Below are positions 6,444 to 28,328 of a stretch of 64,000 nt of DNA, piece by piece. Numbering within the stretch: position 1 is the stretch's first letter; each line of letters begins with the position of its first letter. Source of the stretch: an uncultured Pseudomonadales bacterium (lineage in GTDB: Bacteria > Patescibacteriota > Microgenomatia > UBA1400 > MFAQ01); assembly GCA_964513845.1 (NCBI GenBank), contig CAZENT010000001.1, positions 149,278-213,277 on the forward strand, given 5' to 3'. The notes beneath the pieces are model-generated. The model was given only the letters and a program-made list of their open reading frames with translations, did not search any database and had not been told where the DNA came from. The position numbers were made by a program, and so were the translations under genes.

Positions 6444-7460
6444 GTGATAATCGAAGTAGCTGAAAAAGATAAACAAAAATTTGACATGGCGGCTCGCCAT
6501 CCGTTGCAGTCTTGGGCATGGGGTGAGTTTCGCAAAAAAACGGGAGTTGGTTTGTCCCGATTGGGTTTTGGAGAAAAAAACATTGAGAATTCTTTCCAGA
6601 TTACCTGGCACAGTATTCCCTACACTCAGTTTTGTATTGGGTATTGTCCAAAATCAGTGGTGCCAAGTATTGAAGAGGTCAAAGCAATTCAAATAGAGGC
6701 AAAAAAGAGGAAGGCTATCTTTGTGAAGTTTGAGCCAAACGAAAGAATTAATCAGAGCACAGAAAAGAGTATTCATTCTCTGGAAAAGGACTTTAATTGG
6801 GTAAAGGGAAAATCATTGTTTACAAAATATACATTTCAGCTAGATATTTCTAAAAGCGAAGAGGAACTGTTGAAAAACATGCACCAAAAAACGAGGTACA
6901 ACTTGAGGTTGGCCGAGAAAAAAGGAGTTGAAATTATTGAAGATAATAGCGAGGCGGGATTTGAGGATTACTGGAAATTAATGGAAGAAACAACAAAACG
7001 TCAAGGTTTTTTTGCTCACGGGAAAAATTATCACCGTAAAATGTGGCAAACAATGACCGAGTCAGGACAAGGACATCTTTTTAAAGCTGTATACGAAGGA
7101 AAAACTTTGACAACGTGGATGATATTTATTTTAAATGACGTTATTTATTACCCATATGGAGCCTCAAGCAATGAAAATAGAGAGGTGATGGCCAGTAATT
7201 TGATGATGTGGGAAGTGATTCGTTATGGCAAAAAACAAGGTTGTAGATTGTTTGATATGTGGGGCAGTCTGGGACCCGAGCCAGATGTACACGACCCTTG
7301 GTATGGCTTTCATAAATTTAAGCAAGGATATGGGGCAGAGTTGGTAGAGTTTTTGGGAAGTTTTGATTTGGTGATTTCTCCGACATTATATAAAATTTAC
7401 GGACTGACCGATAAAGTGCGCTGGGTGGGACTAAAATTATTGGCTGGACTCCGAAGGTAA
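6444..7460 (+). CDS. FemAB-family peptidoglycan interpeptide-bridge aminoacyltransferase (paralog 1)
   Basis: FemAB/MurM-like layout: N-terminal HPLQSWAWGEFRKKTG, TRYNLRLAEKKGVEI, and a C-terminal GNAT-like half. Confidence 0.65.
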   Translation: MIIEVAEKDKQKFDMAARHPLQSWAWGEFRKKTGVGLSRLGFGEKNIENSFQITWHSIPYTQFCIGYCPKSVVPSIEEVKAIQIEAKKRKAIFVKFEPNERINQSTEKSIHSLEKDFNWVKGKSLFTKYTFQLDISKSEEELLKNMHQKTRYNLRLAEKKGVEIIEDNSEAGFEDYWKLMEETTKRQGFFAHGKNYHRKMWQTMTESGQGHLFKAVYEGKTLTTWMIFILNDVIYYPYGASSNENREVMASNLMMWEVIRYGKKQGCRLFDMWGSLGPEPDVHDPWYGFHKFKQGYGAELVEFLGSFDLVISPTLYKIYGLTDKVRWVGLKLLAGLRR

Positions 7461-25416: not shown

Positions 25417-26310
25417 TTATTTAATCAGCTTGGCGTAGGTGGAAGAAACGAAGCCCCATTTGCCACTTAGATACTCGATATAGTACCAGCTGGCGGTAGA
25501 GTCTTCAGCTTTGTAGTTGAACTTGTCCCCAGGATTAACCTGAGCCAGCTCGACACCTGTAGTTGAGGCTGCGTCCCTGACTCTTAAAAATCCTGTAGGG
25601 GTGGTAAGAATCTCAATGTAGGGCTTTACCAGGTCAGCAGAGGCGGTTGCTTGTTTGGGAAGCGGAGTAATGACTGTTTTGGTGGGTGTAGGCGTAATTA
25701 GGCCGGCTGAAGGGGTGGCAGAAGCAATTGTTGGGGTGGGGGTGGGAGTAATATCAAGAGCGGCCATGGTGAAGTTCAAAATTAGTCGATATCCAGGCTG
25801 AACTGAGGCGTTGACGATTTTATCTTGGAAACCCGGGTTAGTGAAGGTAAAGACATGAGGGCCGGATTCGATATCGATGCTCTTGGGTGAGAAACCTTCA
25901 GGCTTGCCATCAACACTAATCGTGGCGCTGGCCGGAAGACTGACTATACTCACAGCGGCAGCCTTGTTATTACTTAGTTTTTCAAAAGACAGAGTGTAAC
26001 TGTGAGATTTGTCTGGGGTTTCGCCGAATTCGCGATGAACCGTGGTGAGAGTGCCTCCCAAGAGGTCAACCTTGCCCTCCCACGTCTGGCCGCTATCAAC
26101 TGCGGTCATTTGTACGGTGTAGGTGCCTGGTTTTTTGTTGTCTGCATAGTAAGGAGTTTTGCCAACAGACTCACCGTTGACGATAACATTGGCATCGGGA
26201 TGAGCAGTGACTTGAATGCCGGCTTTTTTGGCGAAGGGATTGAGATTACATCCGGCGAGAAAAATTGAAAAGATAAGAGTGGCTAGGAGCCTAGTATAGT
26301 TAGTCTTCAT
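25417..26310 (-). CDS. PEGA-domain lipoprotein with a C-terminal SH3b-like domain
   Basis: Signal peptide and lipobox LAGC, PEGA-like VIVNGESVGKTPY, a TPTPTP linker, and C-terminal WYYIEYLSGKWGFV (SH3b-like). Confidence 0.5.
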   Translation of the reverse strand: MKTNYTRLLATLIFSIFLAGCNLNPFAKKAGIQVTAHPDANVIVNGESVGKTPYYADNKKPGTYTVQMTAVDSGQTWEGKVDLLGGTLTTVHREFGETPDKSHSYTLSFEKLSNNKAAAVSIVSLPASATISVDGKPEGFSPKSIDIESGPHVFTFTNPGFQDKIVNASVQPGYRLILNFTMAALDITPTPTPTIASATPSAGLITPTPTKTVITPLPKQATASADLVKPYIEILTTPTGFLRVRDAASTTGVELAQVNPGDKFNYKAEDSTASWYYIEYLSGKWGFVSSTYAKLIK

Positions 26311-26391
26311 TTGTGTCTATGATAGCAGATTGTGTCAAGTTGGCGAACAACTACAAATTTTTTATCACTAGGGTAAAAATATGTTTAAGTG

Positions 26392-26465
26392 AGGCCGAGG
26401 CGGGATTCGAACCCGCGAATGAGAGTTTTGCAGACTCTTGACTTGGACCACTTGTCTACCCGGCC
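26392..26465 (-). tRNA. tRNA-Cys (anticodon GCA), 74 nt, CCA not encoded
   Basis: Manual fold: acceptor GGCCGGG/CTCGGCC with one G-U pair, discriminator U73, anticodon stem AGAGU/ACUCU, loop CUGCAAA (U33-GCA-A37), T-arm GCGGG-UUCGAAU-CCCGC, and a D-loop with GG. Confidence 0.8.
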
Positions 26466-26620
26466 ACCTCAGGCACTATTTTATCATTTTTGAATTACAT
26501 TATTGCATTATATTGACTTTTGGGTTTTGTTTGGTAATAATAAATTGTGGAGCGAGACAAAAGAGGTGGATATAACAGAAAAAAATAAACGAGGACTTCT
26601 TCAAAAAATGGTCGCCAAAA

Positions 26621-27265
26621 ATGGCATATGTATTGGGATTTATTTATGCCGATGGAGCGGTTGAAGACTGTAGATCGTCTTCGAGAACGTGTTATTTGTT
26701 GTTATCAAATAACGACATTAAAATTCTTAAAGAAATGCTGTCTGTTATGTCTACCGAACAGACTATCCATAGAGTAGACCCTCGAACGATAAAAATACGA
26801 GATAAGGAATATTGGTGTAAGACATCGTACTATGTCAGGATTGGAAACAAAATAATCTACGATGATCTGATTAAATTAGGTCTGTGTCCTCGAAAATCCT
26901 TAGTCATCGAATTACCAGAAATACCTGATAAATATTTTGAATATTTCCTTCGAGGATATTTTGACGGAGATGGGTGTATCAACATTGAGAAAAATAAGAA
27001 GAATAGGGTGAATATTATTTTTACTAGTGGAAGCAAACTGTTTCTTGAACAATTGGCAGAAAAAATTGTTGGCGTGTACCCAAGAATTAAAAGCTCAGTC
27101 TCTTATGGATTTGGGGCATATAAATTGAGATATAACTGGAGAAATGCACTTATGATTGCAGGATATATTTATCGAGATGTGCACAATGCACCATATTTAG
27201 AATACAAATACACTAAATATTTGCATTATTTAAATTCTAGAGTTAATAGAGATTTCCTGCCTTGA
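26621..27265 (+). mobile_element. Free-standing LAGLIDADG homing endonuclease (double-motif, monomeric type)
   Basis: Two LAGLIDADG motifs, LGFIYADGAV and LRGYFDGDGCI, about 100 aa apart. Located between tRNA-Cys and gap, not inside an intron or intein. Confidence 0.75.
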
Positions 27266-28328
27266 TTACCTCTTCAATGAGGCGATTGGAGTAACCCCAT
27301 TCATTGTCATACCAGGCCAGAACCTTTACTAAAGTGCCATCAACGACACGGGTCATGTCGAGATCGACAATGCTCGATTCCGGACGCCCAACAATGTCAG
27401 AAGAAACTAAAGGCTCGTCGGTAACTGCTAGAATTCCGCGATATCTGGGGTCATTGGCAGCATCGATGAATATTTGATTTACCTCATCGACCGAGGTGGC
27501 GTGTCGGGTAACAAAAGTAAAATCGGTGATAGAGCCGGTGATGACCGGAACACGAAGGGAGATACCATCAAACAATCCTTGAAGCTCAGGAATTGCTTGC
27601 GTGGCGGCAATGGCAGCCCCAGTGCTGGTGGGCACGATATTTTGAGCGGCTGCACGAGCACGACGAAGATCTCTGTGTGAGTTGTCTTGAAGATTTTGAT
27701 CGTCGGTGTAGCCATGAACTGTGGTCAGCATGGCTTTAAGAATGCCAAGCTTGGAGTGAAGAATGTCGGCAACCGGAGCAACGCTATTGGTTGTACAAGA
27801 GGCGTTGCTGATGACGGAAAGCGTGCCTGTGCGATCTTTGGTGATTACATCTTGATCGTTGACTCCTAAAACAGCTGTGGGAACACCTTCTCCTTTGGCT
27901 GGGGCAGAGAGGATGACAAAACGGGCACCTCCCTGAAGATGAAGAATGGCTTTGTCTAGACTGGTAAATGCACCGGTAGACTCAATAACAGCTTCGGCAC
28001 CAAACTCAACCCAAGGAATTTTGACAGGATCGCGCTGAGCCAAAACAGGGATTTTATATGTTTTCTTGGGATGTTCAACAATGAGATAGCCAATTAGAGG
28101 TTTGGCGTCAGTAACATCTTTGGGATCTTGTGTTTCTTCTGAGGAAACGGAGTAGGGAAGAGTGCCATAGGCTGTGTCATAGCGAAGGAGGTGAGCCCAG
28201 CCGGCAACATTGAGAGAGCCAGATGTGTTGATGGCAACTAGAGTGGAGTCGTCTAAATGGCTTTGTAGCCAAACACGCATTGCTGAACGACCGATTCGGC
28301 CAAAACCATTAATCGAAAAATTAACCAT
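27243..28328 (-). CDS. gap: Glyceraldehyde-3-phosphate dehydrogenase
   Basis: INGFGRIGR Rossmann motif and the ASCTTN active-site Cys. Confidence 0.9.
   Translation of the reverse strand: MVNFSINGFGRIGRSAMRVWLQSHLDDSTLVAINTSGSLNVAGWAHLLRYDTAYGTLPYSVSSEETQDPKDVTDAKPLIGYLIVEHPKKTYKIPVLAQRDPVKIPWVEFGAEAVIESTGAFTSLDKAILHLQGGARFVILSAPAKGEGVPTAVLGVNDQDVITKDRTGTLSVISNASCTTNSVAPVADILHSKLGILKAMLTTVHGYTDDQNLQDNSHRDLRRARAAAQNIVPTSTGAAIAATQAIPELQGLFDGISLRVPVITGSITDFTFVTRHATSVDEVNQIFIDAANDPRYRGILAVTDEPLVSSDIVGRPESSIVDLDMTRVVDGTLVKVLAWYDNEWGYSNRLIEEVIKAGNLY

Follow-up and report, generated by a model that had tools for sequence, protein, structure and literature searches.

Why should a homing endonuclease gene stand alone beside a tRNA gene in the chromosome of an ultra-small bacterium? 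The question is raised by a 64 kb stretch of contig CAZENT010000001.1 (assembly GCA_964513845.1; the whole stretch is termed the window), where a 214-aa open reading frame (ORF) with two LAGLIDADG motifs neighbours tRNA-Cys(GCA), the sole tRNA gene that ARAGORN and Rfam identify in the window. An earlier note on this DNA had suggested that such a copy might mark a mobile insertion, or else be domesticated. From the comparisons presented here, it is probable that the endonuclease gene and the tRNA behave as one mobile unit, in which a homing endonuclease is coupled to a replacement tRNA; judging from related sequences, the gene seems to move together with the tRNA. Overlooked by the earlier note were the probable membership of the tRNA in this unit and the frameshifted N-terminus of the protein.

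On sequence and modelled fold together, the ORF is predicted to be a genuine monomeric, double-motif LAGLIDADG endonuclease gene, the product of which would cleave DNA. Its two motifs occur in a single chain approximately 100 residues apart, in the monomeric spacing previously recognised, and Pfam LAGLIDADG_3 matches the second half only, at 38.7 bits against a cut-off of 22.5. Residues 1–200 additionally match PHROG 4645 ‘endonuclease’ (E 2e-33). An AlphaFold2 model of the 214-aa protein (predicted local distance difference test, pLDDT, 83; predicted template modelling score, pTM, 0.78) displays two alpha-beta-beta-alpha-beta-beta-alpha units, and the solved structures matched to it by Foldseek are monomeric LAGLIDADG enzymes, headed by I-Tsp061I (E 1e-8), with bI3 maturase second-best and I-SceI, I-DmoI and PI-PfuI also among the top matches. 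The fold search was needed, as I-CreI provides the sole solved-structure matches by sequence, and these are marginal (E ~1). With regard to the catalytic acids, which the earlier note had proposed to check, Asp11 of the first motif is present in 75 of 76 chromosomal homologues and Asp117 of the second in all 76, with both found in 73/73 phage homologues. Enzymes of this superfamily recognise targets of approximately 20 bp and cleave them site-specifically, leaving 4-nt 3′ overhangs.

The gene is free-standing, with neither intron nor intein surrounding it, as had been stated. Rfam searches return the tRNA only, both for positions 26200–27400 at a permissive E-value, where a group I intron or other RNA was sought, and for the whole window at gathering scores. 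The ORF lies outside any larger frame and is bounded by stop codons, and Pfam detects no Hint or intein domain. Pfam and NCBIfam searches reveal no added DNA-binding or other domain in the 214–239 aa protein, and the PADLOC defence models do not match the ORF. NCBIfam yields weak matches to models of intein-bearing proteins only, all far under their cut-offs. Also considered was a domesticated protein of the WhiA type, a group with degenerate motifs that lack catalytic acids and with a C-terminal helix-turn-helix domain; this is ruled out by the conserved catalytic Asp residues and by the absence of an extra domain, the length being only 214–239 aa. A gap of 155 nt separates the tRNA from the ATG, in agreement with the earlier description, to which it can be added that the tRNA lies on the minus strand and the two genes are divergent. 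The same description placed the ORF upstream of gap-pgk, when in fact it converges on gap (27243..28328, minus strand), with a 23-nt overlap of their 3′ ends. The cassette of the window, flanked by a lipoprotein gene and gap, comprises tRNA-Cys (−), putative divergent promoters and the ORF (+).

The association with a tRNA extends well beyond the window. A scan using one genome per species recovered at least 80 loci (designated by L numbers), with 30–77 % identity, from many Patescibacteria classes and from metagenome-assembled genomes (MAGs) labelled Omnitrophota. ARAGORN finds tRNA-Cys(GCA) or tRNA-Asp(GUC) no more than 180 nt from the ORF in 74 of 80 loci (60 and 14, respectively). The six apparent exceptions resolve: the tRNA-Cys of L041 is interrupted by the contig end, in both L036 and L069 a group I intron of ~210 nt divides the tRNA-Asp at its anticodon loop, L057 has tRNA-Val and then tRNA-Asp, and in L043 and L054 the contig stops at the ORF. 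Thus, all assessable loci abut tRNA-Cys or tRNA-Asp. The stop codon of the ORF falls within the D-arm of the tRNA in 33 loci; where the remaining loci have a tRNA downstream on the same strand, the stop lies 0–20 nt before tRNA +1. In 13 Microgenomates loci the tRNA is instead upstream of the ORF, as in the window. Protein trees, all built by neighbour-joining, separate an Asp-linked clade, a Microgenomates clade with the tRNA upstream (including the window) and a main clade arranged as ORF, tRNA-Cys, tRNA-Leu, so that the protein clades correspond to tRNA identity. Omnitrophota-labelled sequences are nested at several places in this tree.

Viral relatives served as a control. These number at least 569 contigs, with free-standing ORFs of ~200–335 aa and 26–37 % identity, and only one of the 80 retrieved adjoins a tRNA. 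This single copy, L098, abuts tRNA-Trp and belongs to the phage group nearest the chromosomal clade. On these comparisons, the lineage is seemingly large and chromosomal, related to phage homing endonucleases, with each clade tied to one tRNA identity. A literature search of incomplete coverage, which leaves novelty unproven, found no account of a tRNA-linked, free-standing LAGLIDADG family in these phyla, and published work on LAGLIDADG enzymes of the Candidate Phyla Radiation (CPR) concerns rRNA insertions (PMC11270868). The tRNA-linked lineage in ultra-small bacteria is therefore apparently undescribed.

The gene is present at some syntenic sites and absent from others. The order mraY, ubiA, lipoprotein, tRNA-Cys, ORF, gap, pgk, M23 peptidase is common to L001–L008, L015 and L021, across which the ORF diverges to a similar degree as pgk and the lipoprotein gene. 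The comparison of the tRNA-Cys/gap junction that the earlier note had called for was carried out on four Gap homologues, picked solely by identity and length of contig, without reference to the ORF. All four (L247, L248, L249 and L250, with Gap 91, 88, 85 and 80 % identical) keep the synteny and the tRNA-Cys and have no endonuclease gene; the gene is therefore dispensable. The nearest loci of a metagenome Gap scan (L161–L163, 58–60 % identical) have a different synteny and are hence uninformative. In the ORF-less relatives the gap stop codon is found 16–68 nt from the tRNA (68 nt in L247), and the spacer of L248 holds ATATTGA..CTTTTGGGT, a remnant of the ORF promoter which, by its sequence, represents a deletion footprint. 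In the flanking-protein tree, the empty genomes fall between ORF-bearing outgroups and the ORF-bearing clade of the window, a position that can be explained by no fewer than three losses, or else by one loss followed by a regain.

Exchange of the unit is indicated by L001 and L003. Six of their flanking genes are 93–97 % identical at the aa level and 88–92 % at the nt level, with synonymous divergence (dS) of 0.3–0.56, against an endonuclease with only 63 % aa and 65 % nt identity, where dS is saturated and the ratio of non-synonymous to synonymous divergence (dN/dS) is 0.056. A sliding comparison delimits the divergent tract, which runs from inside tRNA-Cys to the gap stop codon, where identity recovers. 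The tRNA-Cys alleles are themselves incongruent with the host tree. The window shares its allele at 100 % identity with L002 and with the ORF-less L247, but its match to the allele of the close relatives L001 and L003 is only 70–74 %. L248, the sister of L247, has a tRNA-Cys only 73 % identical to the L247 allele, and that of L003 is 92–95 % identical to L248 and L249, as against only 82 % to its sister L001. Differences between alleles are paired compensatory changes in the D and anticodon stems, with the loops invariant. The ORF is also poor in GC, at 0.34 in the window versus 0.41–0.49 for flanking genes (0.31–0.35 versus 0.35–0.50 with relatives included).

Further traces of the process may be seen in tRNA debris. 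Between the ORF stop and the gap stop, L001 carries a pseudo-tRNA-Cys reaching from the anticodon loop to the 3′ end (CCGCAAAAACCTCCACGCGAGGGTTCGATTCCCTCTCCGTCC), whose position and orientation equal those of the intact tRNA in the ORF-less L249. Because of this correspondence, it appears that the anticodon loop of a resident tRNA (+) was the point at which a cassette of tRNA (−) and ORF (+) inserted. Pieces of 3′ pseudo-tRNA are likewise located after the ORF (L006) or after the genuine tRNA-Asp (L074 and L068), and 5′ pieces precede the ORF in L080, L056, L055 and L032. In addition, the ORF promoter of the main clade overlaps an antisense tRNA-Cys-like element (AAGTGGTAA-N9-CTGCAA). A D-loop plus anticodon-loop pattern with natural spacing matches 40 tRNA-Cys genes and 10 antisense sites 58–68 nt before the MAY codon, with only one other site in 1.5 Mb and 0.7 matches in shuffled sequence; a looser pattern extends the element to 18 loci, although these sites share ancestry and count as one event. 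This inverted element was detected by the two-block pattern and not by nhmmer with a profile of tRNA-Cys 5′ halves searched upstream of main-clade ORFs, and no tRNA-Asp-like anticodon-loop element was found upstream of Asp-clade ORFs.

Taken as a mobile unit, the cassette would most likely operate as follows. Cleavage of a sensitive tRNA-Cys gene by the enzyme, probably around the stretch from D-loop to anticodon loop, would be repaired from a cassette-bearing copy; the endonuclease gene would thereby be installed, and with it the tRNA allele of the cassette, which is presumably resistant and would take over the essential function. On the simplest account, the cassette would in this manner invade or replace the resident tRNA gene, with broken pieces of the former resident left beside it as pseudo-tRNA, persist for a long time and then be deleted. 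It could be exchanged for a deeply divergent copy, and be present or absent at an otherwise syntenic site. In the window, the protein would be made as a shorter form from an internal Met or, occasionally, at full length by slippage. That the tRNA gene is the cleavage target is suggested by the match of clade to tRNA, the breakpoints at the anticodon loop, the confinement of allele variation to stems and the two intron-split tRNA-Asp genes; the last three also hint, indirectly, that the enzyme may cut the allele lacking the endonuclease gene close to the insertion point, with the linked tRNA allele presumably resistant.

A more specific scheme, a ‘tRNA-gene replacement drive’, is advanced tentatively, as possible rather than probable. 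Here, the invariant D-loop and anticodon-loop would form the half-sites, with the cut in the variable stem between them, and the cassette would carry a cleavage-resistant tRNA allele with its promoter in the 3′ end of the ORF. An arms race would then make an essential tRNA variable through compensatory stem changes, the tRNA-like element of the promoter would be an uncleavable operator for autoregulation, and the ORF-less introns in the anticodon loop of tRNA-Asp would confer immunity.

A number of observations weigh against a mobile unit. The discordance between endonuclease and flanks comes from a single close pair, L001/L003, with 80 species representatives examined for more. The Microgenomates protein tree broadly tracks the host tree and synteny is conserved, and much of the history is therefore vertical. 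The window copy has neither a target-site duplication nor a significant pseudo-tRNA fragment, and may, being truncated at the N-terminus, perhaps be inactive. Finally, dN/dS as low as that of pgk would also fit a host function. Values for the endonuclease are ~0.03–0.17 overall, from which it follows that the protein is under purifying selection, and 0.11–0.17, like pgk, between the window and L001 or L002, where dS is largely saturated and ratios are rough.

This last point leads to the alternative of domestication, in which the LAGLIDADG protein would serve the host in connection with tRNA-Cys or tRNA-Asp, for example as a DNA-binding regulator of the tRNA promoter kept beside its target. 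Such a role would suit the strict tRNA linkage over two phyla despite three gene arrangements, the pgk-like selection, the conserved synteny in Microgenomates and the putative strong, conserved promoter of the gene itself, and the tRNA-Cys-like element over that promoter (10 loci by the strict and 18 by the loose pattern) would suit autoregulation. Domestication is nevertheless unlikely, because the gene is dispensable in close relatives, being absent in 4/4 syntenic ones, and is laterally exchanged, a divergent allele having been swapped in between near-identical genomes. Both catalytic Asp residues are kept and no domain is added, unlike WhiA-type proteins, and neither the atypically low GC nor the N-terminal frameshifts or stop in the window, L003, L006 and L013 are in keeping with it.

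These N-terminal lesions prompt a different alternative, namely that the window copy is a decaying remnant, inactivated by frameshift, in which the ORF is not yet eroded. More than 1,400 homologues were found, most of 232–240 aa with a conserved basic N-terminal extension, read in a single frame as M.RD.RGG.NRKK.NE.FFK.WSP.MAYVLGF. In the window, this conserved extension of 25 codons, beginning at GTG 26547, is out of frame and stops at TAA 26586; restoring one A generates a 239-aa protein, and the equivalent run is in frame in the relatives L001, L002 and L004. Six other public assemblies, derived from five runs, encode exactly the protein of the window and keep the gene order around it. A run of seven A residues (A7) is found in the window and in five of six downloaded Logan contigs, including P0001 (a 98 %-identical variant), and A8 in the sixth, L245; the deletion is therefore real and polymorphic rather than an assembly error of the window. 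Different frameshifts affect the same extension in L003 and L006, and L013, a Patescibacteria MAG, has TGA at a conserved Trp codon (~4630, ..FFEK*SPEMAY..).

Whilst these lesions, and the deletion of the ORF already seen in close relatives, suggest that the window copy may be in an early stage of decay, an inactivated remnant is improbable on other grounds. The 214-codon body is intact with both catalytic Asp residues, dN/dS is 0.11–0.17 against L001 and L002, and the in-frame A8 variant co-exists in the population. The internal Met that starts the 214-aa form is near-invariant across the family, and from comparison with I-CreI the first LAGLIDADG helix appears to start approximately there, so that a shorter, active form from this Met is plausible. 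Furthermore, A_AAA_AAA followed by TAA would permit −1 slippage, and with it occasional full-length protein.

Third, the protein could be a free-standing maturase, aiding the splicing of ORF-less group I introns in Patescibacteria (tRNA-Asp, tRNA-Asn and rRNA). With bI3 maturase as the second-best structural match, such introns in or near the linked tRNA in L036, L069, L071 and L074, and their commonness in Patescibacteria (PMC13011429), there is some reason to consider it, yet it is very improbable: 74 of 77 adjacent tRNAs, including every tRNA-Cys, are intron-less, the 64 kb window has zero group I introns and the ORF is not intron-encoded, the catalytic residues are strictly kept, and linkage follows tRNA identity rather than intron presence. 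Weakest of all, and hardly tenable, is the view that a mobile gene was inserted beside a tRNA recently and as an isolated event, which would fit the low-GC island and the absence of the ORF in some relatives, but not the same gene in the same synteny across Microgenomates with divergence like that of pgk and the lipoprotein gene, the family-wide tRNA linkage or the lack of a target-site duplication. Hence, of the earlier suggestion of a mobile insertion, the mobility is supported by presence/absence and lateral exchange, whereas its reading as a recent isolated event does not, in view of Microgenomates-wide synteny and universal tRNA linkage; the target-site duplication proposed as a check does not flank the window copy.

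If the endonuclease and tRNA do form a mobile unit, the closest functional precedent would, by analogy, be SegB of phage T4, a free-standing GIY-YIG homing endonuclease encoded within a cluster of tRNA genes. Its recognition site of 27 bp contains a conserved tRNA loop motif, and the enzyme drives the inheritance of itself and neighbouring tRNA genes (PMC2330249). Common to both are a free-standing endonuclease gene beside or among tRNA genes and relatives that lack the gene at the same place. The fold is GIY-YIG in SegB and LAGLIDADG here, implying similar working by another protein family. SegB acts between co-infecting phage genomes, whereas the present family is chromosomal, in Patescibacteria and Omnitrophota-labelled MAGs, with one tRNA identity per protein clade, an ORF that physically overlaps the tRNA gene, and a presumed cleavage activity.

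Closer in sequence are the phage enzymes of PHROG 4645 (the ‘mobile intron protein’ of Bacillus phage 0305phi8-36 and Staphylococcus phage homologues), which belong to the same family (E 2e-33, 26–37 % identity), with the shared N-terminal motif KY.(I/V)N..(Y/F)F......AY.LGF..ADG and the same catalytic Asp residues. In contrast to the chromosomal copies, those of phages are encoded in introns or stand free among protein genes, and many have an extra N-terminal region of 60–100 aa. LAGLIDADG endonucleases of the CPR, to which the earlier note had pointed, sit in rRNA insertions and group I introns that are removed from the RNA (PMC11270868). They share host group and nuclease superfamily with the present proteins, and a conserved RNA gene as the (here putative) target, but are located inside the rRNA gene, whereas the present ORF lies outside the RNA gene and would bring a whole replacement copy. 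Also missed by the earlier note is that the family has more in common with free-standing or intron-encoded phage endonucleases than with what is presented here on CPR rRNA introns, which were compared by description only.

Two other systems offer partial parallels. In collaborative homing, F-CphI reportedly lies beside an ORF-less psbA intron of cyanophages; as in L036 and L069, a free-standing endonuclease would adjoin a target gene able to carry an ORF-less group I intron, although most of the linked tRNAs are intron-less and F-CphI is of a different nuclease family. In the fungal mitochondria of Allomyces, an endonuclease gene is said to have inserted in atp6 and brought a replacement for the disrupted part, so that the mobile unit supplies a substitute segment and the original is left as a pseudogene fragment. 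In Allomyces the substitute covers the 3′ end of a protein gene, to which it is fused in frame; in the present case it would be a complete tRNA gene, with pseudo-tRNA pieces as leftovers.

Should the reading as a mobile unit hold true, many ultra-small bacteria host a selfish endonuclease tied to an essential single-copy tRNA gene and travelling with a spare copy of it, which would explain both the large tRNA-Cys differences between near-identical genomes and the tRNA fragments littering these loci. It would constitute a chromosomal LAGLIDADG counterpart to the phage SegB paradigm, and would suggest that DNA exchange in these uncultured lineages is frequent enough to sustain homing. The family would also provide a large natural series of compact (~210–240 aa) meganucleases with predictable, related targets. 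For annotation, an ORF of this family that terminates within a tRNA gene is genuine and ought to be left untrimmed, and a ‘missing’ tRNA-Asp beside these ORFs can be intron-split.

The features of the cassette are collected in Table 1. The putative -10 region of tRNA-Cys lies in a block, CACTATTTTATCAT, that is conserved in the window, L001, L004, L015, L247 and L248. The endonuclease promoter scores 10/12 in a promoter scan, and ~30 nt of it, spacer included, are near-identical in L001–L004 and L015, which the sequence further upstream is not. Because the GTG is only 5 nt after the -10 box, the endonuclease mRNA looks leaderless. Main-clade proteins have a conserved C-terminal tail, (R)VDKK..IL.YL, whose codons correspond to TTGATA..TACAAT just before tRNA-Cys, and in the Asp clade IFEKY coincides with TTGAAA. 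As promoter-like boxes thus coincide with C-terminal codons, the tRNA promoter seems in both clades to lie inside the 3′ end of the ORF.

Table 1. Features of the endonuclease–tRNA-Cys locus, in window coordinates
Feature	Position	Strand	Remarks
tRNA-Cys(GCA), allele ‘A’	26391..26465	-	ARAGORN; Rfam tRNA 61.9 bits; linked partner, probably part of the mobile unit
Putative -10 box TAAAAT of the tRNA-Cys promoter	26478..26483	-	12 nt upstream of tRNA +1; function from motif only
Putative sigma-70-type promoter of the endonuclease gene	26513..26541	+	TTGACT, 17 nt, AATAAT; TG 3 nt before the -10
Start of the ancestral frame: GTG, VERDKRGGYNRKK, TAA	26547..26588	+	First part of the conserved N-terminal extension; ended by a 1-nt deletion
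A7 homopolymer (A8 is the in-frame version)	26579..26585	+	Frameshift site; perfect A_AAA_AAA slippery heptamer, TAA directly after
LAGLIDADG endonuclease ORF	26621..27265	+	214-aa form, starting at the near-invariant internal Met
LAGLIDADG motif 1, LGFIYADGAV	26633..26662	+	Residues 5–14; catalytic Asp11
LAGLIDADG motif 2, LRGYFDGDGCI	26948..26980	+	Residues 110–120; catalytic Asp117; region of the Pfam LAGLIDADG_3 match
Convergent overlap of ORF and gap 3′ ends, 23 nt	27243..27265		Right boundary of the variable tract

The best direct repeat in the window, D1 (26417–26444 versus 26492–26519, 71 % over 28 nt), joins the anticodon arm of tRNA-Cys (antisense) to the region just upstream of, and including, the -35 box of the ORF. 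It is not conserved in L001–L004 and may be due to chance.

Several minor observations were made in the course of these comparisons. In L012/L013 and L060/L073 the endonuclease ORFs (87 and 80 % nt identity) are more alike than their flanks (67–68 %, including non-coding DNA), a discordance opposite to that of L001/L003; recent transfer is possible, on weak evidence. Viral contigs L149 and L156 have TGA at ~5010 (..KAY*LGF..), at a codon where the family has a conserved Trp; in these, as in L013, this could reflect either recoding to Trp (code 4-like) or nonsense mutations. The tRNA-adjoining phage copy, L098:5001-5740, derives from a 426-kb viral contig (IMGVR_UViG_3300028920_000001, a jumbo phage with 11 tRNAs), and its stop codon overlaps the first base of tRNA-Trp.

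The split tRNA-Asp genes (L036:6599-6919 and L069:884-1156, Rfam 50.6 and 44.7 bits) lie directly after the ORF, break after ~position 36 and are missed by ARAGORN; group I introns of this kind have been described as common in Patescibacteria (PMC13011429). ORF-less group I introns also occur at L071:5583-5804 and L074:5256-5486, in each case shortly before a tRNA-Met that is itself followed by the endonuclease gene and tRNA-Asp; they are probably inside another tRNA overlooked by standard tools. In many cases (e.g. L004, L015, L041, L043, L054 and L075), no more than a few hundred bases lie between the endonuclease–tRNA unit and the end of the contig, a hint that strain-level variation or repeats may have broken the assembly at these loci. 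Between the lipoprotein gene and gap, the orientation of tRNA-Cys in L247 and L248 is opposite to that in L249 and L250, all of them ORF-less and syntenic, which suggests repeated rearrangement at this site. Lastly, L002 carries an extra ORF of ~110 codons between the endonuclease gene and gap (6700-7200), containing ..PFSPHISLGQ.., which is reminiscent of the H-x-S/T motif of 2H phosphoesterases (LigT-like).

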